This document shows positions 35,410-47,298 of a DNA stretch of 64,000 nt, piece after piece. The position numbers were made by a program, and so were the translations under genes. Under the pieces are notes generated by a model. That model ran no database searches, was not told the DNA's origin, and saw only the letters and a program-made list of their open reading frames with translations. Source of the stretch: Vulcanimicrobiota bacterium (lineage in GTDB: Bacteria; Vulcanimicrobiota; Vulcanimicrobiia; Vulcanimicrobiales; Vulcanimicrobiaceae); NCBI GenBank assembly GCA_019236975.1, contig JAFAHZ010000024.1, positions 5,096 to 69,095 on the forward strand, read 5' to 3'. Positions within the stretch are counted from its first letter, which is position 1; every line of letters starts with the position of its first letter.

Positions 35410-36693
35410 CTACACTCCTGCCAGCTCGAGAACGCGCGGGTCGGTGATTCTGCCCGAGAGCGCCGACGCCGCACAGGTTGCCGGCGACGCCAGGAACACT
35501 TCCGATTTCGGCGATCCCATACGCCCGACGTAGTTGCGGTTCGTCGTCGAGATCGCACGCTCGCCATCGCCGAGCGTTCCCATGTGACCGCCGAAGCAGG
35601 CGCCGCATCCCGGGGTGTTTACGACGCATCCCGCCGCGGCCAGCGTCGTAAGGACGCCTTCCTGCGCGGCCTGCATCCACACTTTCTGCGAACCCGGGTT
35701 GACGATCACGCGAACGTTCGATGCGATCTTCTTACCGTCGAGGATCTTAGCAACGATGCGCAGGTCCTCGATGTACCCGTTGGTGCACGATCCGACGAAC
35801 ACCTGATCGACCGAAACGTTGTCGGCCGCGACCTCGGAGATCGGATGCACGTTATCGGGCGTGTGCGGGCACGCCACTTGGGGCTCGAGCGAGCCGGCGT
35901 CGATCGTGACGACGCGCTCGTAGACGGCATCGTGGTCGGCGCGGTCGACCGCAAAATCGCGATTCGTGCGCTCCTTGACGAACGCGATCGTCTTGGCGTC
36001 GGCGTGGAAGATACCGTTCTTCGCACCGGCTTCGATTGCCATGTTTGCCATGGTGATCCGTCCCGTAATCGAGAGCTCGTCCACGGTCGTTCCATGGTAT
36101 TCGATCGCTCGATACGTCGCGCCGTCGATGCCTAGCTCGCCCACGGTGCGCAGCATCAGATCCTTTGCGTACACCATTGGGCCGAGCTTTCCGTTATAAA
36201 CGAGCTTGATCGAAGCGGGGACCTTCAGCCACACTTCGCCCAAGACGAAGGCTGCGGCGATGTCGGTCGACCCCATACCGGTTGCAAACGCGCCGAAAGC
36301 GCCGTACGTGCACGTGTGCGAATCGCCGCCGACAATCAGCTCGCCCGGAGCGACAAGCCCCTCCTCCGGCAGTACGACGTGTTCGATTCCTCCGCGTCCG
36401 ACGTCGAAGAAATGCACGATCTCCTGCTCGATCGCAAAATCTTTCATGAGCTTGGCGAGCTTTGCCGACTGAGCGTCCTTCGCGGGGACGAAGTGATCTT
36501 CGACCAGTGCGATGCGGCTGCGATCGAAGACGCGATCGGCACCCTTGATGCCGCGCATCACGCCGATCGCGACGGCAGCCGAAAGCTCGTTGGCCAATAC
36601 GAGGTCGACGTTCGCGTTGATAATTTGCCCCGGCTCGACGCGCTCGAGTCCGGCGTGCCGAGCGAGAATTTTCTCGGTGAGTGTCATGCCCAT
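35410..36693 (-). CDS. leuC: 3-isopropylmalate dehydratase large subunit (LeuC type 2 / HacA-like)
   Basis: Reads MGMTLTEKILARHAG... with the aconitase-family Fe-S ligand region (GGDSHTCTYGAFGAFATG; VFVGSCTNG). The start is the ATG at 36693 or 36687. Confidence 0.9.
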   Translation of the reverse strand: MGMTLTEKILARHAGLERVEPGQIINANVDLVLANELSAAVAIGVMRGIKGADRVFDRSRIALVEDHFVPAKDAQSAKLAKLMKDFAIEQEIVHFFDVGRGGIEHVVLPEEGLVAPGELIVGGDSHTCTYGAFGAFATGMGSTDIAAAFVLGEVWLKVPASIKLVYNGKLGPMVYAKDLMLRTVGELGIDGATYRAIEYHGTTVDELSITGRITMANMAIEAGAKNGIFHADAKTIAFVKERTNRDFAVDRADHDAVYERVVTIDAGSLEPQVACPHTPDNVHPISEVAADNVSVDQVFVGSCTNGYIEDLRIVAKILDGKKIASNVRVIVNPGSQKVWMQAAQEGVLTTLAAAGCVVNTPGCGACFGGHMGTLGDGERAISTTNRNYVGRMGSPKSEVFLASPATCAASALSGRITDPRVLELAGV

Positions 36694-36703
36694 GATAGCT
36701 CTC

Positions 36704-36709
36704 ATTATA
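36704..36709 (-). promoter_or_regulatory. TATAAT box 10 nt upstream of the leuC ATG
   Basis: The minus strand reads ...CGCCCTATAATGAGAGCTATCATGGGCATG. The divergent metY ATG is only 19 nt away on the other strand. Confidence 0.3.
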
Positions 36710-36727
36710 GGGCGAAGCACTCGGGTC

Positions 36728-37981
36728 ATGCACCTCGACCGTCAATTCGGGTTCGCCACCCGCGCCATCCATGCAGGAACGCCTCCCGACCCTGCCACCG
36801 GCTCCCGCGCGGCACCGATCTACCAAACGGCGGCGTACGTCTTCGGATCAACCGAGCAGGCGGCGGAGCTTTTTGCGCTGCGCAGCTACGGTCACATCTA
36901 CAGCCGCATCAGCAATCCCACCGTCGCAGCGTTCGAAGAACGCGTCGCCAGCTTGGAGAATGGCCTCGGCGCCATCGCGTTCTCGAGCGGCATTGCCGCG
37001 CAGCTGTGCGCGGTGCTCGCCGTCGCGCAACACGGCGATCACTTGGTCTGCTCGCAAAACGTTTACGGCGGTACCGTCACGCAGTTCACCGTGACGCTCA
37101 AACGCATGGGCATCGATGCGACGTTCGTCCCGGCCGGCGATCTCGCCGCGGTTCGTGCGGCGATCGCGCCCAATACGAAGCTCCTCTTTGCCGAAACCGT
37201 CGCAAACCCGTCGGGAGAAGTCGCCGATATCGAGGCGCTCGCGGAGATCGCGCACACCGCCGGCGTGCCGCTCGCCATCGACAATACCTTTGCAACGCCC
37301 TATCTCTGCCGCCCCATCGACCGCGGCGCCGATCTCGTGCTGCACTCGGCAACCAAGTTCATCGGGGGCCACGGTGCGGTGATCGGCGGCGTGCTCGTCG
37401 AATCCGGACGCTTTCCATGGGATAACGGACGCTTTCCGCTGCTCTCGACACCGAGTCCGGCGTATCATCAGAAGACGTTTACGGAAACCTTCGGCGAGTA
37501 CGCGTTTCTCATGCGCGCGCGCGCCGAGGTGCTGCGCGACGTCGGTGCCCAACTCGGTCCGATGGATGCGTGGCTCTTGCTGCTCGGATTGGAAACGCTC
37601 GCCGTCCGCATGGAGCGTCACGTCGCCAACACGCGTGAAATCGTCGCTTTCCTCAAATCGCGGGCGGAAGTCGCTTGGGTCAACGAGCCGCAGCTCGGAT
37701 CCATTTTTACGTTCGGTTTACGCGGCGGGCGCGACGCGGCGCGCCGTTTCATCGACGCGCTCGAACTCTGGAGCCACCTCGCCAACGTCGGCGACACCAA
37801 GAGTCTCGTCATCGCTCCTGCGTCGACGACGCATTCGCAGCTCTCGGACGACGAGTTGCGAAAAGCGGGCGTCCCTCCGGAATCCATTCGGCTCTCCGTC
37901 GGCCTAGAAGATGCTGCCGACTTGACGTGGGACCTCGAACGCGCGCTCGTCGCATCGATCGTGCCGGAGAGCGTGCGTTGA
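36728..37981 (+). CDS. metY: O-acetylhomoserine (thiol)-lyase / sulfhydrylase, PLP-dependent Cys/Met-metabolism family
   Basis: From [39 protein letters not shown]..., with SRISNPT and the PLP-lysine region [14 protein letters not shown]. The track ORF N-terminus (36512-36727) is antisense to leuC and is rejected. Confidence 0.9.
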
Positions 37982-38460
37982 TTCTGCGGACACCGGCCGA
38001 ACGCCGTGCGCTGCTGGATCGTCTGACGAGCGTTGCCGTCGTCGGCGCTTCCAACAATCCGCTGCGCCCCAGCTATACGGTCTTCTCGTACTTGCGGACG
38101 CGGACGCCCTATCGCGTCGCGCCGGTCAATCCGACGATCGAAGCGATCGACGGCGTAAAAGCGTATCCGTCGGTAAGCGCGTACGCCCGCGAAAACGGCG
38201 CGCCCGACGTCGTCGACGTCTTCCGTAAACCCAGCGACCTCGTCGCCGTCGTGGACGACGCGATTGCGGCCGGCGCGCGCGCGATCTGGTTTCAGTACGG
38301 CGTGATCAACGAAGAGGCCATTGCCAAGGCCGATGCGGCCGGGCTCGACGTCGTCGTCGACCGTTGTATGAAAGTGGAGCACGCGCGGTTTACCGGCGGC
38401 TTATCCGCGACCGGCCTCAATAGCGGCGTTCTCACGTCGCGTCTGCGCGGCCGGCCGTGA
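37978..38460 (+). CDS. CoA-binding domain protein (YccU/YneT-like, CoA_binding_2)
   Basis: The TTG at 37978 overlaps the metY stop (TTGA). The sequence reads SVAVVGASNNPLRPSYTVFSYL...VAPVNP...GVKAYPSV...PDVVDVFRKPSD...GARAIWFQYGVINEEA. Confidence 0.75.
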   Translation: MILRTPAERRALLDRLTSVAVVGASNNPLRPSYTVFSYLRTRTPYRVAPVNPTIEAIDGVKAYPSVSAYARENGAPDVVDVFRKPSDLVAVVDDAIAAGARAIWFQYGVINEEAIAKADAAGLDVVVDRCMKVEHARFTGGLSATGLNSGVLTSRLRGRP

Positions 38461-39560
38461 CCTACGCCGGCGAGTCCTTCCAACTCGACACCGAGATTCT
38501 CGCCGCGATCGATGCCTGGCATCGGAGTGGGAAGGCGATGGCCGACGGCGACTTCGACGATCTTGCGTTACGGATATTCGCTTACCAGCTGCGCTACAAC
38601 CGTCCGTACGCGCGGTACTGCGCCGGCTTTGGGATCTCGCTCGACGCGCTGCCGGCGACTTGGGATGCCATTGCGCCCGTACCGGCCGCCGGTTACAAAG
38701 AAGCGACGCTGACGACGTTCGATCCCGCCGGCGCGGCGCTTGCGTTCGAAACCAGCGGCACGACCGCCGGCTCCAGCGGGCGCCACTTCATGGAAACGCG
38801 CGCGCTGTACGATGCGGCGCTGCTCGCCGGCTTCGAGCGCAGCGTGCTCGCAGGGCGGAGTCGCCTCCGATATCTCAACGTGGTCCCTAATCCCTCCGAG
38901 CGTCCGCAATCGTCGCTCGGATACATGATGCAGCGCGTGAGCGCCACGTTTGGCGACGGCCAGACCGGATGGTACGTGCGCGGCGACGCGCTGCTGGTCG
39001 ACGCCTTCGTCGCAGACGCACGCGCCGCCATCGACGATGCCGCGCCTACGTGCCTCACCGCAACCGCATTCGCCCTTGCCGGGCTGCTCGACGAACTCGA
39101 ACGGCGCGCCCTCATGCTGCCGTTTCCCAATGGCAGCTGCATTGTGGAGACCGGAGGGTTTAAAGGGCGCGTGCGCACGGTCGAACGGCGCGAGCTGTAC
39201 GAACGCGCCGCGCGAGCCTTCGGCGTGCCGATTCGCGACATCGTTTCGGAATACGGTATGACCGAGCTGACGTCGCAGTACTACGACGCTCCCGACTCGC
39301 GAAGCGCCGTCGACGGCCGGCGAAAGCTCGGTCCGCCGTGGCTGCGTTCGCGCGTCGTCGGGCCCGACGGCAAGACGCTACCGGATGGAACCGTCGGCGC
39401 GTTAGTCCACGTCGATCTGGCGAATCGTTCGTCGTGCCTTGCCGTCGCTACCGAAGACCTGGGGGTTCGTTTCGACGACGGACTCGTGCTCATTGGGCGC
39501 GACGGCGGCGCGTCGCTGCGCGGCTGTTCGCTCGACGCCGAAACGCTGTTGCCGCGTTAA
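38457..39560 (+). CDS. LuxE-like acyl-protein synthetase / acyl-adenylate-forming enzyme
   Basis: The GTG start overlaps the upstream stop (GTGA). The N-terminal pattern FDDLALRIFAYQLRYNRPYARYCAGFGISLDALPATWDAIAPVPAAGYKE, followed by FETSGTTAGSSGRH, matches the LuxE family layout (PF04443-like) as I remember it. About 367 aa, a typical length. Confidence 0.68.
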   Translation: MTYAGESFQLDTEILAAIDAWHRSGKAMADGDFDDLALRIFAYQLRYNRPYARYCAGFGISLDALPATWDAIAPVPAAGYKEATLTTFDPAGAALAFETSGTTAGSSGRHFMETRALYDAALLAGFERSVLAGRSRLRYLNVVPNPSERPQSSLGYMMQRVSATFGDGQTGWYVRGDALLVDAFVADARAAIDDAAPTCLTATAFALAGLLDELERRALMLPFPNGSCIVETGGFKGRVRTVERRELYERAARAFGVPIRDIVSEYGMTELTSQYYDAPDSRSAVDGRRKLGPPWLRSRVVGPDGKTLPDGTVGALVHVDLANRSSCLAVATEDLGVRFDDGLVLIGRDGGASLRGCSLDAETLLPR

Positions 39561-40858
39561 CGCTTTCGCGCCGCCGGCGACGCGGAACTCGACGGCGACG
39601 GCGACGGGCTTCCGCTGGGCGTTGGTGACGGCGTCGGCGTTGGCGCCGGCGCCGGCCCGACGAACACGGCCGAGCCGCCGGCTGACGAGAGAATGGTCAC
39701 GTTCTTTCCGGCGGTTCCGGCGTGGAACGTCCGCGCGACCGCGTACCGCCCGAACGAATTCGTTCCCTGCGCGACGTTCCACGTGTTGTTGCCGAGCGCG
39801 CAGATGGACGCGCCGCTCTTGGTCACTTCGATCTCGACAACGGCGTTGCGGAAAGTGTTTCCGCCCTGCGAACCTTTGCCGCCGTAACCGAAGTCGACCG
39901 TGCACGCCTGCGATGACGACGAGGAACCGCTCGACGTCGGAGACGGTGACGGCGACGCGGACGGCGATGCGGTCGCGGAGTCGGCTCGCGGTGTAGGCGA
40001 CGGCGATGGCGACGCCGACGCCCCGAGCACGTCGGTGTATGCGTGTCCGGTCGTTTGGAACGTCTGCGACGACGCCATGATCGTGGCCGTTCCGTCGGTA
40101 CGGAAGCCGTCGGCGCCGTCCAGCACGCTATTTCCGGGTCCGCTCAACGAGATGTTCGGGGGCGAACTCGCACTCGCGATCGAAAACGCCGCGATTGCGA
40201 ATGCGGGGCCTCCGATCGAGCAGCCGGTGCACGACAGCGAACCGCCGGGAACGACGACTCCGCCGGCTCCGGAACCTCGCACGAACGCTCCGAAGGTGTT
40301 CTGATTCGCCGTAATCGAGCCGAGCGCGTCCACCGCCGCAAACGTTCCCGTCGTTACCGGCGTGCGCGTTCCGACGTAAAGCTGATCCAGCGTGGCTTGC
40401 ACGCCTTGCTGGACGACGAGCGTCGCGTAGTACGAATGCGGCGGCGCCTTCAATTGTTTTTCGAGAGTCGTATCTTCGCCGCTTCCGTTGATGAAGACAC
40501 CCTTCCTGATCGACTGTCCGTAACCGCTTCCCGAAAGAACGACGCCCGGACTGGAAACGACGATCGGAAACGTCTCGCCACTGGACGTCGAGTAGACGCC
40601 GGGGTTCAATTGAATGGTCAAGCCGGCGGTTTTCACCACTTTCAGCGCGTGCGTAATCGTCTTGAACGGCGCCGTCTGGGTGCCCGGGTTGGTATCGCTG
40701 CCTTTGACCGGATCGACGTAGTAGATCGCGATCGGGGTAGGCGTCGTCACCGGCGGCATACCGTTGCCTCCACGCCGCGTGCAGGCCGTGCTGAGCACGA
40801 GCACGCCGAGCGCGACCGCGCCGACCGTGAGAAAGAGGTGCCGCGTGAGGCTAGGCAT
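39557..40858 (-). CDS. Secreted lipoprotein with a right-handed beta-helix (DUF1565/pectin-lyase-fold-like) domain and Ser/Pro-rich linkers
   Basis: The likely start is MPSLTRHLFLTVGAVALGVLVLSTAC| (lipobox) at 40858. Then IYYVDPVKGSDTNPGTQTAPFKTITHALKVV (typical DUF1565 N-terminus), followed by SPSPSPTP and PTPTPSPTPSGSPSPSPSSS linkers. The stop overlaps the luxE-like stop (TTAA). Confidence 0.65.
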   Translation of the reverse strand: MPSLTRHLFLTVGAVALGVLVLSTACTRRGGNGMPPVTTPTPIAIYYVDPVKGSDTNPGTQTAPFKTITHALKVVKTAGLTIQLNPGVYSTSSGETFPIVVSSPGVVLSGSGYGQSIRKGVFINGSGEDTTLEKQLKAPPHSYYATLVVQQGVQATLDQLYVGTRTPVTTGTFAAVDALGSITANQNTFGAFVRGSGAGGVVVPGGSLSCTGCSIGGPAFAIAAFSIASASSPPNISLSGPGNSVLDGADGFRTDGTATIMASSQTFQTTGHAYTDVLGASASPSPSPTPRADSATASPSASPSPSPTSSGSSSSSQACTVDFGYGGKGSQGGNTFRNAVVEIEVTKSGASICALGNNTWNVAQGTNSFGRYAVARTFHAGTAGKNVTILSSAGGSAVFVGPAPAPTPTPSPTPSGSPSPSPSSSASPAARKR

Positions 40859-40922
40859 GGTCGCGGGCTTTAGGCGTCCCTGCCTTGGGAACCTCGGCAC
40901 CGAAGAAAGAACGAGATGAGAG

Positions 40923-42140
40923 ATGAGTCTCTCCGACAGGCCCGCGCGCACCATTCTGCGCGCCGTCAGCGATGCCGCGGCACGATGGACCGACGGGGAC
41001 TTTCCACCTCGCGTGCGGGCGCTCGACCGCGTCGTGCAACGCACCGGCTATTGCGAGCCGGCCGTGGAGTACGCGTTCGACGCTTTGTTCGCATCGCTGA
41101 ATGCCGCCGACCTCGAACGCGCGATCGCGCGCGAGCTCGGCGACGTTGCAGCGCTCGACGGATTCGTCATTCGCGGACGAAACCGCGAGCGCGCGCTTCC
41201 CGCCGGTCGCGTCTGCATCGTTTCGAGCCGTACGACCGTCGGCGTTGCGATCGTTCCGGCCGTCTTCGCCTTGCTCGCCAAATGCGACGTTCTCGTGAAA
41301 GACCGCGAGGACGCATTGGTTTCGGCGTTCTTCGCGACGCTCGGCGAGGAGCTGCACGATTTTCGCAACGCCGCAATAGCGCAAACGTGGGACGGCGCGG
41401 GCCGCGACCTTTCCGAATTCGACGTCGTGGCTGCGTTCGGCGACGACGAAACGCTCGCGTCGATCGCGCGCGGTCTCAATTGGAAAACGCGCTTCATCGG
41501 ATACGGCGCCAAAGCGAGCGCCGGTTACGTGGGGTGTGAATCGCTGGCGACGCGCCGCGATGCCGAGCGCGTCGCCGAAGGCGTCGCTCGCGATCTCGCG
41601 CTCTTCGAAACGGAAGGCTGCTTGAGTTTGCACGCGCTGTTCGTGGAAGCCGGCGGCGAAGTCCCACCCGGCGAGTTTGCCGAGATCCTCGCGCGCGCAG
41701 TGCGGCGCGCTGCCATCGAATTTCCACCGGCACGACCCGATGCAGCGATCGCCGCCCGCGTTGCTGCGGCGCGAGACGGTGCCTCGTTTCGCGCTTCCCA
41801 AGGGGGCTTCGCCGTGCATTCCGACGCGGAGGCTTCGTATCTCGTCGAATGCGACGCGTCCGCCGAACGGCCGCCGGATTTCTTACCGCGCGCGATTCGC
41901 CTTCAGGTCGTTGACGGTCCCGAGGCCGCAGCCGCGTATCTGCGCCGCCATCGCGTGCCGCTCGAGGCGCTCGCACTCGACGGCGTTCGCGACGACCTCA
42001 CGCGGTTCGCCGTTGGAGCGGGAGCTTCGCGCATCGCATCGTTCGGCGCGTTGCAAACGCCGGGCGCCGGAAGCCGGCACGGCGGCCGCCCGCGCATCGC
42101 CGAGTTCGTTCGCTGGGTGAGCGACGAGCGAGACGCTTAG
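40923..42140 (+). CDS. LuxC-like acyl-CoA (acyl-protein) reductase, aldehyde-forming
   Basis: 405 aa of ALDH-like fold with a candidate catalytic Cys in FETEGCLSLHALFVE. It is paired with a LuxE-like gene, the canonical LuxC/LuxE association. Family recognition is from memory only. Confidence 0.62.
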   Translation: MSLSDRPARTILRAVSDAAARWTDGDFPPRVRALDRVVQRTGYCEPAVEYAFDALFASLNAADLERAIARELGDVAALDGFVIRGRNRERALPAGRVCIVSSRTTVGVAIVPAVFALLAKCDVLVKDREDALVSAFFATLGEELHDFRNAAIAQTWDGAGRDLSEFDVVAAFGDDETLASIARGLNWKTRFIGYGAKASAGYVGCESLATRRDAERVAEGVARDLALFETEGCLSLHALFVEAGGEVPPGEFAEILARAVRRAAIEFPPARPDAAIAARVAAARDGASFRASQGGFAVHSDAEASYLVECDASAERPPDFLPRAIRLQVVDGPEAAAAYLRRHRVPLEALALDGVRDDLTRFAVGAGASRIASFGALQTPGAGSRHGGRPRIAEFVRWVSDERDA

Positions 42141-42142
42141 CG

Positions 42143-43438
42143 TTGGAAGAACTCGAACGCATCGTTACGGCCGTCCCCGGGCCGCGCAGCCGCGAGTTGG
42201 CTAGCGCGCTGCGCGCGCACGAGTCGCGCAATGTCACCTATCTGGGGGACGATTTCCCCGTCTTTTGGGAATCGGCGTCGGGCGCGCTCGTCCGCGACGT
42301 CGACGAAAATCGATACCTCGATCTGAGTGCTGCCTTCGGCGTGGCCAACGCGGGGCATGGCAACCCGTACGTCGTTACCGCTATCGCCCGCCAAGCGGAA
42401 CGGCTCGCGCACGGTATGGGCGACGTGCATCCGACCGAGACGCGCGTTCGCCTCTTGGAAAAGCTCGGCGACATTCTGCCCGAAGGGCTCGACAAGTTCT
42501 TTCTCGCGACGACCGGCTCGGAAGCCGTCGAAGCCGCGCTCAAAACGGCGATGCTCGCTACCGGCAAGGCGCGGTTTGCCGCATATCGCGGTGCCTATCA
42601 CGGATTGTCGCTCGGCGCGCTGACCGTGAGCGGCATCGATACGTTCGTCGACCCCTTCTGCAAGGTGCTGGGCGAACGCGCGATTCTTCTCGAGTATCCG
42701 CATGCGCTTGCGGGAACGACTGCCGAGGCCGCCATCGCTTCCGCGCGTGCAGAGCTCGCACTCCGGGACGACGTCGCAGCCATCCTCATCGAGCCGATTC
42801 AAGGGCGCGGCGGCTGTATCGTTCCGCCGGCCGGCTATCTCGCCGCGGTGCGCGCGCTGTGCGACGAGCGCGGGATGCTGATGATCGTCGACGAGATCTT
42901 CACCGGCTTCGGCCGTACCGGAACGCGCTTTGCGGTCGAGCACGATCGCATCGTGCCGGACATCCTCTGCATCGGCAAAGCGATGGGAAACGGTTTTCCC
43001 ATCAGTGCGGTTGCCGCACGCGCGTCCGTCATGGACGCGTGGCCGATGTCGACTGGCGAAGCGTTACACACGTCGACGTACCTCGGCAATCCTATGGGTT
43101 GCGCTGCGGCGCTGGCCACGATTCACGAACACGAACGGCTCGCGCTGCCGGAGCGCGCTCGCCGCATGGGATTGTCGCTCGGCTCGCGACTCGATGGGAT
43201 GCGCGCGCTGCGCAACGTCGCCGGCGTGCGAGGCCGCGGAATGCTCTGGGGCATCGTTATGCGCGACGGTGCGGTTGCGGAGTCGGTGGTGAAGCGCGCG
43301 CTGGCGACCGGCCTCATCGTGCTTGCCGCGGGACCGTCGGGCGACACAATTTCACTTTCTCCGCCGCTGACGATCGGCGAGGGGCAACTGAGCCGCGCCA
43401 TCGATCTCTTGGAGGCGGCAGTCAGAAGCGTCGAGTAA
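42143..43438 (+). CDS. Class-III (omega) aminotransferase, ArgD/GabT-like
   Basis: Reads NAGHGNPYVVTAI..., TTGSEAVEAALK, IVDEIFTGFGRTGTRFA, with the PLP lysine in LCIGKAMGNGFPISAV. The TTG start lies 2 nt after the luxC-like stop. Confidence 0.87.
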   Translation: MEELERIVTAVPGPRSRELASALRAHESRNVTYLGDDFPVFWESASGALVRDVDENRYLDLSAAFGVANAGHGNPYVVTAIARQAERLAHGMGDVHPTETRVRLLEKLGDILPEGLDKFFLATTGSEAVEAALKTAMLATGKARFAAYRGAYHGLSLGALTVSGIDTFVDPFCKVLGERAILLEYPHALAGTTAEAAIASARAELALRDDVAAILIEPIQGRGGCIVPPAGYLAAVRALCDERGMLMIVDEIFTGFGRTGTRFAVEHDRIVPDILCIGKAMGNGFPISAVAARASVMDAWPMSTGEALHTSTYLGNPMGCAAALATIHEHERLALPERARRMGLSLGSRLDGMRALRNVAGVRGRGMLWGIVMRDGAVAESVVKRALATGLIVLAAGPSGDTISLSPPLTIGEGQLSRAIDLLEAAVRSVE

Positions 43439-43447
43439 CCGTCGGCT

Positions 43448-44476
43448 GTGAAAGTGTATCGTATCGGTATCTCGGGCGCCGGCTTCGGGGTGCACGCGCA
43501 TCTGCCGGCGCTGCTCGCGCATCCCCGCTTCGACGTCGTCGCGCTGGCGTCGCCGCACACTGCGCCGCGCCTCGCCAAAGAGCGCAAGATTCCGCACGCG
43601 TTTGCTTCCTGCGCCGAAATGCTGAAGGGCTGCGACCTCGATGCGGTAACGGTGGCATCGCCGCCGTTCGCACACCGTGACGACCTGCTGGCCTGCCTCT
43701 CGGCGGGCAAGCACGTCCTCTGCGAAAAGCCCTTTGCGACCAGCGTTGCCGACGCACAAACGATGCACTCCGCTGCGGTAGCAGCCGGGACCGCGTGCGG
43801 CGTCGCGCACGAGTTCCGATTCGTCCCCCAAGCGCAAGCGCTGAAGGAACTCGTCGTTCACCATCACCTCGATCCGCTGCGCGACGTCGAAATCACGTCG
43901 CTGCGTCCGTTTTTGCATCGGCAAAACAAGCGCTCGCGCGGCTGGTGGTTCGAGCGCGATCGCGGCGGCGGCATCGCCGGCGCCATGTTGTCGCATCTCG
44001 TCGATCACGCAAACTGGCTGGCCGCCCGCGCTCCCGAGCGGAGCGTCGGCTTTACGCGCGTGGCAAATCCAATACGCACGGACGATGCGGGCGAGTTTCG
44101 TTCGACGGTCGACGACGGTGCCTTCGCGCTGCTCGATTACGGAGACGGGCTCGTCGCGCGCCTGGCAGTCGAGGGAACGACCGCAGCCGAGGGCTATACC
44201 TGTGCGGTGCACGGGGAGGATCGCAGCGCCGTGGCGAGCGGACCGAATATCACCGAGGTCGCACTCTTCACGGTCGACAAAGACGAAACGAGCGAGCTCG
44301 AGTGCACGCCCTTGCCGTACGCGAAGTTCGCCAGTATTAACGCCAACGTACCGTTATTGATGGAACTCTACGACGAGTTCGCCCGGGCCATCGAAGGAAA
44401 ACCCAACGCGCTGCCGACGTTCGACCAGGCCGTAGCCACGCAACGCGTCCTCGCGAGCGTGGGCTACGGAACCTAG
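43448..44476 (+). CDS. Gfo/Idh/MocA-family NAD(P)-dependent oxidoreductase
   Basis: Rossmann N-terminus YRIGISGAGFGVHAHLPAL...VTVASPPFAHRDDLLACLSAGKHVLCEKPFA (EKP motif). GTG start. Confidence 0.82.
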   Translation: MKVYRIGISGAGFGVHAHLPALLAHPRFDVVALASPHTAPRLAKERKIPHAFASCAEMLKGCDLDAVTVASPPFAHRDDLLACLSAGKHVLCEKPFATSVADAQTMHSAAVAAGTACGVAHEFRFVPQAQALKELVVHHHLDPLRDVEITSLRPFLHRQNKRSRGWWFERDRGGGIAGAMLSHLVDHANWLAARAPERSVGFTRVANPIRTDDAGEFRSTVDDGAFALLDYGDGLVARLAVEGTTAAEGYTCAVHGEDRSAVASGPNITEVALFTVDKDETSELECTPLPYAKFASINANVPLLMELYDEFARAIEGKPNALPTFDQAVATQRVLASVGYGT

Positions 44477-44481
44477 CGCGT

Positions 44482-45501
44482 TCAAGCAAGAGGCGTGCGA
44501 CAGACGAACGCGTGCGCCTTCGCGTCGTACCACCACAGGCGGTCGTAGCGATCGATCCACGCGCCGCCGATCAATCCGGCCACGGTTCCGTACTGGCCCA
44601 GCGAATGCACGCCGGCGCGATCGATACGTACGACCGACGTCGAGTACGAATCGCCGTCGCGAGCGCCGACGAGGAGCGTAGCGTTATCCGGACCCGCCGT
44701 CAGAACGCGCATCGCGCACCCATCGAGGTCCCAGGTGCGCAAAATCTTCTTGGAGCCCAGGTCGATCGATACGGCGTGTTCGCCGGCAGTAGCCCACGTT
44801 CGATCCTCGTCGCGTCCGCGGACGTCGACCGGTACGCGCCATGGGCGGCCGGTGGCACGAAAGCACGCGTTGCTCGGAACGCTCACGACGACGGAGCGTT
44901 TGTTCCAGCGATTTTCGATTGCGACGAACGGCCGCGCAGCGTCCGCGACCACGAGATACTTCTTTCCGTGCGGACCTCCCGCGAGCGCGGCGGCAAAGGG
45001 ATCGATGCCGTTGGGCACTCGCTCGGCGTACCATTTCCACACGTCGAGCACCGCTATCTGATGGCGCTGCTGCTCGGCAAAAACCAGCCACCGGTGATGG
45101 GCGTCGGCGATAACGCCCTCGGCCGGCGCGTACTGCGCGGGGAGCGCTAACGGATCGGTACGCAGCGTGCTGCCTACGCGCGTGAGGTGCGTACCGTCGC
45201 CGCCCAGGACGTAGACGGCGTTGGCGTACCAAAAGAGGCGCCCGTCGCGCGCGTCGGCGTCGCGCACGCTTTGCTTCGCCGACGGAGCTGACGCGCGCAC
45301 GATGCGGTCGCCGTCGACGTACCAGAGCGCACCGCTCGCGTCGACGACGTGCGAACCCGGCGCGGTCGACGTTTTAGCGACCGGAAACGTAAGGTCGATG
45401 TAGCGGTCCGGCTTCGCCGGCTGTCCCGCGTTCGAACACGCGCAGAGACTGCCGATCGCTGCGGCCGACGCTATGCAGGCGAGCGCTCTTTCCCAACGCA
45501 T
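44482..45501 (-). CDS. Lipoprotein, hypothetical (beta-rich)
   Basis: The likely start is MRWERALACIASAAAIGSLCAC|SNAG at 45501. The upstream part of the 484-aa track ORF is Arg/Gly-rich and overlaps cinA. I recognise no family. Confidence 0.5.
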   Translation of the reverse strand: MRWERALACIASAAAIGSLCACSNAGQPAKPDRYIDLTFPVAKTSTAPGSHVVDASGALWYVDGDRIVRASAPSAKQSVRDADARDGRLFWYANAVYVLGGDGTHLTRVGSTLRTDPLALPAQYAPAEGVIADAHHRWLVFAEQQRHQIAVLDVWKWYAERVPNGIDPFAAALAGGPHGKKYLVVADAARPFVAIENRWNKRSVVVSVPSNACFRATGRPWRVPVDVRGRDEDRTWATAGEHAVSIDLGSKKILRTWDLDGCAMRVLTAGPDNATLLVGARDGDSYSTSVVRIDRAGVHSLGQYGTVAGLIGGAWIDRYDRLWWYDAKAHAFVCRTPLA

Positions 45502-46733
45502 CGTCTCCACATAATACCCAAGCCGGCGGTCGTCGCGCGGCTCTGGATGGCACTGCGATCGCCGCGCAGCAGGAAACGCCAGGCTTGCGGGCCTTCGCTC
45601 GAATCGAGCGCGATCCACACGAGTCCGACGGGTTTCTCGGCCGAGCCGCCGCCCGGACCCGCAATGCCCGTGGTCGCTAGCGCGACGTCCGCGCCAAAAC
45701 GCCGGCGTGCACCCTGCGCCATTTCCAAGGCCACCGTTTCGCTCACCGCGCCCTCTCGCGCGATCGTCGCCGGGTCCACGCTCAGCTCCGACACTTTGAC
45801 GGCATTGTCGTAGGCTACGACGCCGCCAACGAAGCTTTTCGACGCACCGGGAACGCTCGTCAGTGCGGCTGCAATGCGTCCTCCCGTGCACGATTCGGCC
45901 ACCGCGACTTTCTCGCCGCGCGACTCGAGCGCGCAAAGAATCGCCGCTTCAATCGTCGTCTCGTCGGTGCCGAACACGAACCCTTCGAGACGCCGTTCGA
46001 TCTCGCGTTGCACGGGTCCGATAGACGCCTCGGCCTCCGCGCCCGTAGCGGCTTTGGCCATGATCTTGACGTCGGCGCGATAGTCGTGCGCCAAAACGGC
46101 AATCTTCGGATTCTCTCCCGCTCGAAACAGGTCGTCGATGCGGTGATCGATCTCGGACTCACCCACGTTGATCGTGTGGATCACGCGCGTGTAGATCGCG
46201 CTTCCCAACGCAAACCGCTCGCGCAGCAGCGGCAGCAGCCGTTCGGACAGCATCGGCTTCATCTCGCGAGGGACGCCCGGCATGCACGCCACGAATTTGC
46301 CGCGCGCGTCGAAGGCGACGAAGCCCGGTGCGGTCCCGACCGGGTTGGGAAGGGGCGTGGCGCCCGCCGGCAACTCCGCTTGCTTGCGATTGTTCGGCCG
46401 CATCGTGCGGCCGATCTGTGTGAAGAAGGCTTCCATTTGGCGCAGCGCCGGCTCGTAGAGCTCGGTGCCCACGCCCAACGCATCGCATACCGCTTCCTTT
46501 GTAAGGTCGTCGACCGTCGGCCCGAGGCCGCCCGTCGTCACCACGCCGTCAGATCGATCGAGCGCGCTCCGAATCGCCGCGGCGATGCGCTCCCGATTGT
46601 CCCCGATAGCGTGCGTGGCACGCACGTCGATACCGCTTTCCGCCAGGCGCTGTGCGACGTGCGTGGTGTTCGTGTCGAGGAGCTGACCGAGCAGCAGCTC
46701 CGTGCCGACCGCGATCAACTCAACGCTCGGCAT
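45471..46733 (-). CDS. cinA: CinA-family protein (MoCF-type domain plus PncC nicotinamide-nucleotide amidase domain)
   Basis: From MPSVELIAVGTELLLGQLLDTNTTHVAQRL...VTTGGLGPTVDDLT. The C-terminal CinA domain reads AVAESCTGGRIAAALTSVPGAS...GVVAYDN...VALATTGIAGPGGG. Confidence 0.87.
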   Translation of the reverse strand: MPSVELIAVGTELLLGQLLDTNTTHVAQRLAESGIDVRATHAIGDNRERIAAAIRSALDRSDGVVTTGGLGPTVDDLTKEAVCDALGVGTELYEPALRQMEAFFTQIGRTMRPNNRKQAELPAGATPLPNPVGTAPGFVAFDARGKFVACMPGVPREMKPMLSERLLPLLRERFALGSAIYTRVIHTINVGESEIDHRIDDLFRAGENPKIAVLAHDYRADVKIMAKAATGAEAEASIGPVQREIERRLEGFVFGTDETTIEAAILCALESRGEKVAVAESCTGGRIAAALTSVPGASKSFVGGVVAYDNAVKVSELSVDPATIAREGAVSETVALEMAQGARRRFGADVALATTGIAGPGGGSAEKPVGLVWIALDSSEGPQAWRFLLRGDRSAIQSRATTAGLGIMWRRCVGKERSPA

Positions 46734-47298
46734 GAGGCTCCGTAAACCAGTGCGGATACTCGAACTCGACGCGCGCTTCGAAACCTTCCGCGGCATCGAT
46801 CGCGTCGGCCCGGCGCACCGGCGACTCGTCGGGCGATGGGTGCTCGGCGCGCGTGCGCTCGCGCCGCCGCGCCAGCTCGGTGACGAACCGCGCGAAGCGC
46901 GCGTCCATCGCGCGCTGCAGCGCTTCCTTGAGTTTTTTCCCAGCCCGCGGCGCCAAGCCGGCCGTGGAAATCGCAACGCGGACGGGCCCCGCTTTCGCGA
47001 TTGCCGTCATCGCAACGAAACCGTACGCGGGCTGATCGATGCAGCAGAGCAGAAAACGATGCCGGTCCGCCAGCGCGCGCAGGCGCGCCGAGAGCGCCGC
47101 ATCTTGCGGCGTCGAGATCACCAGGAACGCGTCCGCCAGGTCTTCGTCGCGAAGCGCGCTCGTTTCGAGTATCCGCCGTACGATCGCGCCCGATTCCTCC
47201 AACGCCACCGTCTTGTCGGTCGCCTCGCGGTCGGCACCGATCACGACGCACGCTCTTCCGTCGAGGTTCAGCCCCACGGGGAAAAAGGGAAGGCGCAT
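46720..47298 (-). CDS. Siroheme-synthase N-terminal-domain-like protein (precorrin-2 dehydrogenase/ferrochelatase family, degenerate NAD motif)
   Basis: Reads MRLPFFPVGLNLDGRACVVIGADREATDKTVALEESGAIV...LCCIDQP...VRVAISTAGLAPRAGKKLKEAL, resembling the CysG-N/SirC layout. However, the GxGxxA loop is altered (GADREA). The ATG overlaps the nadE stop (TGATG). Confidence 0.55.
   Translation of the reverse strand: MRLPFFPVGLNLDGRACVVIGADREATDKTVALEESGAIVRRILETSALRDEDLADAFLVISTPQDAALSARLRALADRHRFLLCCIDQPAYGFVAMTAIAKAGPVRVAISTAGLAPRAGKKLKEALQRAMDARFARFVTELARRRERTRAEHPSPDESPVRRADAIDAAEGFEARVEFEYPHWFTEPHAER

Follow-up and report, generated by a model that had tools for sequence, protein, structure and literature searches.

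The LuxE-like, LuxC-like and class-III aminotransferase genes encoded in the window, i.e., the entire 64,000-nucleotide stretch of DNA analyzed here, most likely form a conserved three-enzyme unit that converts an acid to an amine. With a probability of roughly 0.55, this operon would convert 7-carboxy-7-deazaguanine (CDG), the product of QueD and QueE, via 7-formyl-7-deazaguanine to preQ1 (7-aminomethyl-7-deazaguanine) without QueC and QueF. The identities of the genes, their catalytic residues, the conservation of the operon and its phyletic and contextual patterns were observed directly and are described below.

All seven open reading frames of a preliminary description of this DNA were found at the coordinates assigned to them. 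On the + strand, metY, encoding an O-acetylhomoserine sulfhydrylase (36728..37981; TIGR01326, 546 bits, above cut-off), is followed by the gene for a stand-alone CoA_binding_2 protein (37978..38460; PF13380, E 8.6e-37) and by that for the LuxE-like enzyme of 367 aa (38457..39560; assigned by NCBIfam LuxE and an ortholog profile against 7XC6_E). Reading of the sequence returned the TTGA overlap described for metY and the CoA-binding gene (37978-37981) and the GTGA overlap between the latter and the LuxE-like gene (38457-38460). In addition, a TTAA stop/stop overlap (39557-39560) was read between the LuxE-like gene and an antisense gene for a DUF1565 beta-helix lipoprotein (39557..40858, − strand; PF07602, E 3.8e-19). 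Back on the + strand, the gene for the LuxC-like reductase of 405 aa (40923..42140; PF05893, E 1.5e-40) is separated by 2 nt from that for the omega-type class-III aminotransferase (42143..43438; PF00202, E 3.9e-97), which in turn precedes the gene for a Gfo/Idh/MocA NAD(P) oxidoreductase (43448..44476; PF01408, PF22725, PF02894) by 9 nt; both gaps had been described correctly. The antisense gene likely starts at MPSLTRHLF..., and its product carries a signal peptide and the lipobox LSTAC. It is limited to the window's genus and one further genome (G013), with LuxE and LuxC genes being adjacent or overlapping elsewhere, and is a recent lineage-specific insertion between them. Besides the LuxE-like and LuxC-like genes, metY, the CoA-binding gene, the beta-helix lipoprotein gene, the aminotransferase gene, the Gfo gene, a hypothetical gene and cinA were found in and around the cluster. 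Among the flanking genes inspected at the locus, neither luxA/luxB nor the gene of the LuxD thioesterase adjoined the cluster, as stated earlier.

When the LuxE-like enzyme was searched as a single sequence, no match to PF04443 was obtained at E<=0.01, and its full-length match to NCBIfam LuxE (NF052244; E 1.2e-5) reached 24.5 bits with a cut-off of 550. The ortholog profile, in comparison, matched LuxE (chain E of PDB 7XC6) over residues 34-359 with an E value of 5.7e-25, and relatives with 35-43% identity cleared the Pfam LuxE cut-off (PF04443). Thus, the assignment was weak from the single sequence and solid from the ortholog profile. Alignment of 13-15 orthologs revealed invariant K236 (ETGGFKGR), R348 and C357 (LRGCSLDAE), the counterparts of LuxE K238, R355 and C364 (PMC9157457). 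The catalytic Lys/Arg pair of LuxE and the acylated cysteine of its C-terminal TRxxKGCxLS motif are present, the ANL C-terminal subdomain is missing, and the length is close to the ~370 aa of the family. LuxE::LuxC fusion proteins occur in the LuxE-like family, as do, elsewhere, Zn-ADH::LuxE fusions. Judged by its sequence, the enzyme is a member of the LuxE superfamily and not a LuxE equivalog, and the genomic context argues against an action on long-chain fatty acids.

The LuxC-like reductase scored 139.8 bits against PF05893 (cut-off 21), and its profile matched 7XC6_A with an E value of 2e-19, aligning Cys233 (EGCLS) to the catalytic cysteine. Thus, the family identities first proposed for the pair hold, since ortholog profiles match the LuxC-LuxE complex 7XC6 and the catalytic residues are kept; the Pfam check was positive for LuxC, and for LuxE it was negative with the single sequence and positive with the relatives of 35-43% identity. 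The match to 7XC6_A stops at residue 447 of the 477-residue chain, with nothing past it. In LuxC, the C-terminal oligomerisation segment P460-P488 closes a 40-Angstrom hydrophobic acyl cleft (PMC9157457). Since the LuxC-like reductase, which is about 70–80 residues shorter than LuxC, lacks this segment, it suits a non-fatty substrate. The module shares its two protein families with LuxC-LuxE of luminous bacteria (Photobacterium phosphoreum, PDB 7XC6; PMC9157457): the LuxE proteins have in common the missing ANL C-terminal subdomain, the Lys/Arg pair and a C-terminal acylated cysteine (RGCSL motif), the LuxC proteins are ALDH-fold reductases with a catalytic cysteine, and the genes are adjacent or fused. 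However, the similarity is only about 20–25%, with single-sequence HMM scores far under the equivalog cut-offs, and the module differs from the lux systems in having no luxA/B/D beside it, in its coupling to a dedicated aminotransferase and in its predicted substrate, which is not a fatty acid.

For the aminotransferase, no NCBIfam equivalog above cut-off was found. The nearest solved structures were PatA (4UOX) and GabT (1SF2) of E. coli (E about 6e-69 to 6e-61), with which it shares the fold, the PLP lysine and the omega-amine/aldehyde chemistry. PLP Lys268 and Asp239 (GabT numbering) are kept in the window's enzyme and in all module-linked homologs. Unlike GabT, these enzymes carry the signature R141L, E211R, Q242F/Y, R398S/T/A and I50F; the window's enzyme has L at 141, R at 211 (EPIQGRGG) and S at 398 in a robust local alignment. 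It thus has neither the Arg398/Glu211 switch nor the Arg/Lys141 of the GabT/PatA/ArgD type. With positions 141, 211, 242 and 398 replaced, recognition of substrate and donor must differ, and the loss of both carboxylate-binding arginines together with an aromatic/hydrophobic pocket suits a non-carboxylated substrate. The signature is common to module-linked homologs in at least six phyla and was found in no other class-III enzyme of the window's genome. By these residues, the aminotransferase is classed as a distinct, module-linked class-III subfamily. A canonical ArgD/GabT, named beforehand as an outcome that would speak against the module, was ruled out by the missing equivalents of GabT R141 and R398. 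Since K236, R348 and C357 of the LuxE-like enzyme, Cys233 of the LuxC-like reductase and the PLP Lys/Asp of the aminotransferase are all kept, the parts appear competent for the chemistry.

The LuxE-LuxC-aminotransferase triad was present in 41/41 genomes of the Eremiobacterota class, where it is a single-copy, universal, housekeeping-style operon in small genomes, and it was also found in 12 or more phylum-level groups besides. Triads with the same aminotransferase signature were found in Spirochaetota, Omnitrophota, Verrucomicrobiota, Myxococcota and delta/proteobacterial MAGs; at the loci of Verrucomicrobiota or Gemmatimonadota, as far as the loci themselves extend, the aminotransferase gene is not adjacent to LuxE/LuxC. 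The order LuxE-LuxC-aminotransferase-Gfo was syntenic in 19 of the 20 relatives examined, mostly with 4-nt overlaps, an arrangement far beyond chance. The preliminary description had also counted metY and the CoA-binding gene as module members and had called for gene-neighborhood statistics. Synteny supported LuxE, LuxC and the aminotransferase in many phyla and Gfo in families f1 and f2, but not metY and the CoA-binding gene. Upstream of the cluster, f2 and two further genomes (G003, G010) lack this pair, no other phylum examined has it near the module, and it stays together where LuxE is inverted (L058, L060); no CoA-binding homolog was found near the module outside f1. According to this distribution, metY and the CoA-binding gene form a pair of their own that neighbors the conserved module without belonging to it, so the hint of an amino-acid-derived substrate drawn from the coupling to metY falls. 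The proposed logic of carboxylate activation, reduction to the aldehyde and conversion to a primary amine fits, with LuxE, LuxC and one aminotransferase subfamily staying together across phyla.

The Gfo protein combines an N-terminal Rossmann domain with a C-terminal alpha/beta domain (PF01408, 83.9 bits; PF22725, 53.2 bits; PF02894, 43.6 bits), and its best PDB match reached only an E value of 8e-18. Its gene comes after the aminotransferase gene at every f1 and f2 locus, overlapping it by 4 nt in 9/19; in f3, an MFS_3 transporter ('secretion effector') stands in its place, and a paralog with 60% identity is encoded on contig C129. By gene order, Gfo is a lineage-specific co-translated accessory, and it may act on the aldehyde or on an alcohol formed as a side product.

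The window's genome possesses adjacent queD and queE as well as tgt, queA and queG, while no queC, queF or yhhQ was found. Within the class (n = 41), QueD/QueE and QueA were present in 41/41 and Tgt in 38/41 genomes. The QueF HMM yielded 0/41, whereas the same search was positive in 7/14 control genomes. QueC was convincing in 2/41 (G014, G040), the weak matches being MnmA/NadE-type proteins; the canonical de novo set with both QueC and QueF was not found in the class. Because five of the class genomes are single contigs, incompleteness does not explain the gap. Thus, with QueD, QueE and Tgt kept and QueC and QueF missing, the hole matches the predicted preQ1 chemistry exactly. Neither the triad nor the hole varies within the class, both being universal there. 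In 50 genomes from 12 other phylum-level groups, picked for having LuxE, Tgt was found in 49, QueE in 45 and QueC in 4 (QueE and QueC with E. coli queries only), and QueF in 0–1, with only FolE-like partial matches. Fisher's test for QueF in these 50 genomes versus the 10 bacterial ones among the controls, which comprise only 14 model genomes, gave p about 5e-8, a value not corrected for phylogeny. Two of the four QueC cases were strong matches in triad loci (L075, L109). A gene encoding QueD (PF01242; 51–64% identical to E. coli QueD) directly follows LuxC in eight Verrucomicrobiota loci, overlapping it in three. In L074, one 122-aa ORF separates the aminotransferase gene from a QueE-like radical-SAM gene on its upstream side, and in f3 the triad lies ~18–20 kb from queE. 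In the class, the cluster adjoins no que gene, and the neighbors of queDE are unrelated. A search for preQ1 riboswitches at 36 sources (the window, 5 class loci and 30 outside loci) was negative throughout.

In the proposed scheme, the LuxE-like enzyme would adenylate the carboxylate of CDG and hold the product in thioester linkage to its C-terminal Cys357. The acyl group would be handed to Cys233 of the LuxC-like reductase, which would free the aldehyde, 7-formyl-7-deazaguanine, with NAD(P)H, and the dedicated aminotransferase would convert it to the primary amine preQ1. We infer from comparative evidence which substrate and amino donor are used, in which direction the reactions run and that each catalytic step of this scheme takes place. 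The module would stand in for QueC (CDG to preQ0) and QueF (preQ0 to preQ1) in queuosine tRNA modification, sharing with them the start at CDG, the end at preQ1, the initial activation of the CDG carboxylate by ATP and the use of NAD(P)H. It belongs, however, to protein families unrelated to the ATP-dependent QueC and the NADPH nitrile reductase QueF, and it would proceed through an aldehyde instead of a nitrile, with nitrogen from PLP transamination instead of ammonia. The module would use one NAD(P)H and one ATP; the canonical route uses two NAD(P)H and two ATP. The intermediate 7-formyl-7-deazaguanine has been described as a compound that QueF mutants release (PMC13740343). No publication describing the route from CDG via 7-formyl-7-deazaguanine to preQ1 was found, and the literature searched agrees with the earlier remark that non-luminous LuxCE pairs are essentially uncharacterised.

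A tentative alternative, possible although it was given clearly less than even odds, is that the triad converts another small non-fatty carboxylic acid to an aldehyde and an amine (or alcohol). Candidates for this acid include a cofactor, an envelope precursor and a secreted compound; Gfo, or the MFS_3 exporter of f3, would then be a true pathway member, and the queuosine hole would be filled otherwise or by salvage. The preQ1 scheme needs neither a Gfo gene tightly coupled in translation to the aminotransferase gene nor Zn-ADH::LuxE fusions; both fit such a generic aldehyde/alcohol pathway slightly better, and the replacement of Gfo by the transporter, the lack of que-gene adjacency in the class and the differing neighbors across phyla (FHA-GGDEF, LpxK, ABC transporters) point the same way. 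Moreover, panD is missing class-wide while panB/panC are kept, so other pathway holes exist; beta-alanine or GABA-type products, however, are disfavored by the lack of an Arg141 equivalent. Neither the near-perfect absence of QueF/QueC from 91 LuxE-bearing genomes that keep QueE/Tgt nor the overlap of queD with LuxC in Verrucomicrobiota is accounted for by another acid.

Activation and reduction of a fatty acid, followed by transamination to a fatty amine or amino alcohol as for the tambjamine tail, is unlikely. It draws on the homology to the LuxC-LuxE fatty acid reductase, on the hydrophobic character of aminotransferase residues 50, 141 and 242, and on TabE (LuxC-like) and the omega-transaminase TabA, which make dodecylamine for tambjamine BE-18591 in Streptomyces (bioRxiv 10.1101/2025.08.11.669332). 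Like the module, TabE/TabA lead from a thioester via an aldehyde to a primary amine with an ALDH-superfamily reductase and a class-III transaminase, but they take an acyl-ACP/CoA substrate from fatty acid synthase without LuxE and belong to a secondary-metabolite cluster, not a conserved housekeeping operon. The missing cleft element of the LuxC-like reductase, the absence of linked thioesterase, ACP or lipid genes and the single-copy, universal occurrence of the operon disagree with a lipid substrate, which also leaves the que-gene anticorrelation and the queD linkage unexplained; the fatty amine suggested earlier is thus an improbable product, the comparative evidence favoring CDG. Less probable still is an amino-acid version developed from the preliminary description, in which the module, functionally tied to metY, would work like ArgB-ArgC-ArgD, LysZ-LysY-LysJ or ProB-ProA but with an adenylating enzyme, and would use glutamate, aspartate or aminoadipate. 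It would be in line with the lack of proB/proA in 39/41 relatives and of the whole arginine pathway in the window's genus, and with the start/stop overlaps joining metY, the CoA-binding gene and LuxE. However, genomes that lack the arginine pathway and proC have the cluster just as regularly as those that encode them, it also occurs in two genomes with proBA (G008, G018), and asd, hemA and hemL are present canonically. As conservation of the module does not extend to metY and the CoA-binding gene, and as the arginines for binding amino-acid carboxylates are missing from the aminotransferase, an amino-acid substrate appears largely refuted, principally by the phyletic pattern.

If the conversion of CDG to preQ1 by the LuxE-LuxC-aminotransferase operon is true, it would constitute a preQ1 pathway independent of QueC and QueF, filling the queuosine step whose usual enzymes these bacteria lack.

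The LuxE-like, LuxC-like and class-III aminotransferase (AT3) genes of the window may together form a route from 7-carboxy-7-deazaguanine (CDG) to 7-aminomethyl-7-deazaguanine (preQ1) that replaces QueC and QueF, a reading drawn from sequence comparison to which we give a probability of about 0.55. The window lies on contig C150 of a MAG of 3.19 Mb in 336 contigs, which is assigned to the phylum Eremiobacterota because close homologs of its proteins carry the names Baltobacteraceae, Tumulicola or Lustribacter. ORF listing combined with Pfam and NCBIfam scans identified metY (36728-37981, + strand; TIGR01326), a gene for a CoA_binding_2 protein (37978-38460, +; PF13380) and the LuxE-like gene (38457-39560, +), followed on the opposite strand by a DUF1565 beta-helix lipoprotein gene (39557-40858, -), for which the start and the lipobox were read. 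Downstream are the LuxC-family gene (40923-42140, +; PF05893, E = 1.5e-40), the AT3 gene (42143-43438, +; PF00202, E = 4e-97) and a gene for a Gfo/Idh/MocA oxidoreductase (43448-44476, +; PF01408 and C-terminal domains). The junctions, with TTGA, GTGA and TTAA overlaps and gaps of 2 nt and 9 nt, were as given in the preliminary description. In a promoter and terminator scan of 36400-46200, matches were no more frequent than in shuffled sequence. Convergent with the Gfo gene, with the stop codons 5 nt apart, is a 484-aa ORF (44482-45936, -) that extends into the start region annotated for cinA (ORF 45471-46976); it had no Pfam or NCBIfam match, and its conservation was limited to the genus of the window.

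The LuxE-LuxC-AT3 triad was present in all 41 Eremiobacterota genomes of the class, and the LuxC-like gene was single-copy in every member of the window's family (f1) and order (f2). Synteny mapping revealed the order LuxE-LuxC-AT3-Gfo in 19 of 20 loci, with 4-nt overlaps between LuxE and LuxC, between LuxC and AT3 and often between AT3 and Gfo. The sister lineage (f3) seemed at first to lack the cluster, an impression overturned by searching with a LuxE profile and inspecting the loci: the triad was found there in 11/11 genomes, followed by an MFS_3 transporter gene. At one f3 locus (L055), a divergent GAF-GGDEF-HD gene adjoins the triad. A paralog of the cluster Gfo/Idh/MocA gene, 60% identical, is encoded elsewhere in the window's genome (C129:16540-17556); the class-III aminotransferase homologues of this genome all lie on other contigs.

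It had been proposed that the module is co-translated with metY. The pair of metY and the CoA-binding gene precedes the cluster in most f1 genomes, is not found there in f2 or in the genomes G003 and G010, and is intact in two other Eremiobacterota MAGs in which LuxE is inverted. On this synteny, membership of the two genes in the module was rejected, and the pair is regarded as a separate unit. The beta-helix lipoprotein, which has Pro/Ser/Thr-rich linkers, was limited to the window's genus and one further genome (G013), and its gene is thus an insertion. Being antisense, it splits an otherwise overlapping LuxE/LuxC pair, so that transcription of LuxC must start from a separate promoter within the divergent 64-nt spacer (40859-40922). 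Thus, metY and the genes for the CoA-binding and beta-helix proteins are bystanders.

The LuxE and LuxC family identities proposed from the sequence were borne out by profile searches. As a single sequence, the LuxE-like protein matched LuxE models weakly; an alignment of 15 orthologs matched the LuxE chain of 7XC6, the cryo-EM structure of a LuxC-LuxE complex (PMC9157457), over nearly its full length with E = 5.7e-25. Mutagenesis of LuxE has shown the importance of K238, R355 and the acylated C364 of the C-terminal KGCxLS motif (PMC9157457). The corresponding residues of the LuxE-like protein, K236, R348 and C357, were invariant in the orthologs. The LuxC-like profile matched chain A of 7XC6 with E = 2e-19, and Cys233 aligned with the catalytic cysteine. 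This alignment ends before the C-terminal segment of LuxC, which closes a 40-Angstrom hydrophobic acyl cleft (PMC9157457). Among 1.84 billion library representatives, 694 clusters (50% identity, E<=1e-30) belonged to the LuxE-like family, and 7 of 10 long members tested were LuxE::LuxC fusions. The two genes also share one frame at locus L104 of the Verrucomicrobiaceae. AT3::LuxE fusions, suspected from long ORFs, proved to be mostly ORF-calling artefacts, the genes lying in different frames.

Among solved structures, those of E. coli putrescine aminotransferase and GabT come nearest to AT3. Compared with E. coli GabT, AT3 enzymes have Leu in place of R141, Arg in place of E211 (motif EPIQGRGG), Phe/Tyr/Trp in place of Q242, Ser/Thr/Ala in place of R398 and Phe in place of I50. 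The replacements of R141 and R398 leave AT3 without both GabT/ArgD-type arginines for the carboxylates of substrate and co-substrate, and its pocket is predicted from the alignment to be aromatic and hydrophobic. This signature was common to the window protein and all AT3-upstream-type homologs aligned, from Eremiobacterota f1-f3, Spirochaetales, Omnitrophota, Verrucomicrobiae, Myxococcota and delta/proteobacteria; in the window's genome only the cluster enzyme carries it. The missing arginines and the pocket residues ruled out a canonical ArgD or GabT, and they argue against omega-amino acids as the likely products.

Housekeeping roles were also considered. The proB/proA genes were absent from 39/41 class genomes, and the arginine pathway (argB/C/E/G/H, OTC) was absent from the window's genus (G000-G003), from roughly half of f1 and from every f3 genome, with proC co-varying with it. 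These losses suggest auxotrophy for arginine and possibly proline, or formation of proline from ornithine. The cluster was present whether or not the arginine pathway, proBA or proC were; the analogy with ArgBCD or ProBA logic was therefore abandoned. Replacement of HemA/HemL or Asd was rejected because asd, hemA and hemL are all present canonically. A supply of beta-alanine might be considered, since panB/panC occur in 41/41 genomes and pyruvoyl-type panD is absent from 40/41 (present in G021 only); however, nothing positive ties this gap to the module, and AT3 lacks the carboxylate-binding arginine, so the proposal stands without positive support.

The queuosine pathway (FolE, QueD, QueE, QueC, QueF, Tgt, QueA and QueG/H) is considered completely resolved, and genomes with QueD/QueE and Tgt but without QueC/QueF are usually read as incomplete or as salvagers. 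The window's genome encodes adjacent QueD and QueE on contig C262, as well as Tgt, QueA and QueG; no QueC, QueF or YhhQ-type transporter was found in it. Across the class, queD/queE and queA were present in 41/41 genomes and tgt in 38/41, several genomes being single-contig assemblies. The QueF HMM had no match in any of the 41 genomes and matched 7/14 control genomes. QueC matches were convincing only in two (G014 and G040), the ubiquitous matches of 20-31 bits being MnmA- and NadE-type PP-loop enzymes. Since queD/queE, tgt and queA are kept without QueC and QueF, the pathway hole sits at the conversion of a carboxylate to an aminomethyl group, exactly the chemistry predicted for the triad. 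In the class, the operon was not adjacent to que genes, and the neighbours of queDE (beta-lactamase-fold, MqnA/B-like, NamZ and DUF4438 genes) were uninformative. Rfam at gathering thresholds, run on the window, on the que loci and on 30 loci of the module, found no riboswitch and gave tRNAs only.

Beyond the phylum, one genome per GTDB species was scanned, and 80 of more than 596 LuxE-like relatives found were retained, from Gemmatimonadota, Verrucomicrobiota, Myxococcota, Acidobacteriota, Sumerlaeota, Chloroflexota, Bacteroidota, Spirochaetota, Omnitrophota and others. In most of the retained loci, LuxE is followed by LuxC; about 24 loci have an adjacent AT3 homolog (35-48% identical), usually in the order AT3-LuxE-LuxC. 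In eight Verrucomicrobiota loci, queD (PF01242; 51-64% identical to E. coli QueD) lies directly after LuxC, overlapping it in three. At L074, a locus of the Verrucomicrobiae, a QueE-like radical-SAM gene closely precedes AT3, the two being separated by a single 122-aa ORF. These queD and queE neighbourhoods support the queuosine reading independently of the gene-presence pattern. An apparent recurrence of Gfo at L074 was dismissed, the gene not being an ortholog of that of the window. In Bacteroidota, Sumerlaeota and Acidobacteriota, the genes around LuxE were mostly uninformative. In two Sumerlaeota loci (L069:9145-10353 and L070), a class I/II aminotransferase gene (PF00155) follows LuxE where LuxC or the class-III enzyme was expected, and an HD-domain phosphohydrolase gene precedes LuxE. 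Three Myxococcota loci (L102, L116 and L124) carry an FHA-GGDEF diguanylate cyclase gene directly upstream of the module aminotransferase.

Of 50 LuxE-bearing genomes from 12 other phylum-level groups, 49 carried Tgt, 45 QueE and only 4 QueC. QueF was absent, the only matches, one of 27 bits and thirteen weaker, being partial and lying in ORFs of about 200 aa typical of FolE. Relative to ten bacterial controls, the depletion of QueF gave a Fisher p of ~5e-8, a value that ignores phylogenetic dependence and relies on a small control set. The few LuxE-bearing genomes with QueC carry it beside an extra QueE copy and lack QueF (G053, C16:108192-110656; G085, C44:6510-7842), which points to a distinct preQ0-based system, for instance one for DNA modification.

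In the proposed route, the LuxE-like enzyme would adenylate CDG and form a CDG thioester on Cys357. The acyl group would pass to Cys233 of the minimal LuxC-like reductase, where reduction with NAD(P)H would release free 7-formyl-7-deazaguanine. This aldehyde is a known hydrolysis product released by QueF mutants (PMC13740343). The 'arginine-swapped' AT3 would then transaminate it to preQ1, from which Tgt, QueA and QueG would complete queuosine. Every catalytic step is what we infer from the observed residues, conservation, pathway hole and linkage.

The main competitor, a triad acting on another small acid, is considered clearly less probable than the preQ1 route. It is kept alive by three features: the preQ1 scheme leaves the tightly coupled Gfo gene without a role, the replacement of Gfo by MFS_3 in f3 hints at an exporter in the module, and Zn-ADH::LuxE fusions (P0152 and P0197 of the representative library, with a zinc-type alcohol dehydrogenase N-terminal to the LuxE-like domain) hint at an alcohol/aldehyde oxidoreductase. 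A fatty amine as product, which the kinship with LuxC and LuxE would bring to mind, is improbable; the LuxC-like alignment stops short of the cleft-closing segment. The amino-acid-derived substrate at which the coupling to metY had hinted is the least probable, metY being a bystander. The nearest chemical precedent to the triad is the TabE/TabA pair of tambjamine biosynthesis. In the papers searched, LuxE/LuxC were nowhere tied to queuosine and no aldehyde route to preQ1 was described; non-luminous LuxC/LuxE genes appeared solely as annotated members of flagellin glycosylation islands (PMC4875605).

Although its parts belong to known superfamilies, the pathway role of the triad is potentially new. 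That a preQ1 route independent of QueC and QueF is the normal one in Eremiobacterota and across much of Verrucomicrobiota, Gemmatimonadota, Myxococcota and further phyla that are largely uncultured, and gives the widespread non-luminous LuxCE pairs their first assigned physiological role, is a proposal whose chances we consider evenly balanced. If the CDG-to-preQ1 reading is true, it would define a new subfamily of class-III aminotransferases with a relocated substrate-binding arginine, and biocatalysis would gain a natural ATP/NADPH/PLP cascade that turns a heteroaromatic acid into an aminomethyl group and could be used instead of nitrile reductases. It would also explain a recurrent "missing gene" problem in at least 13 phylum-level groups.
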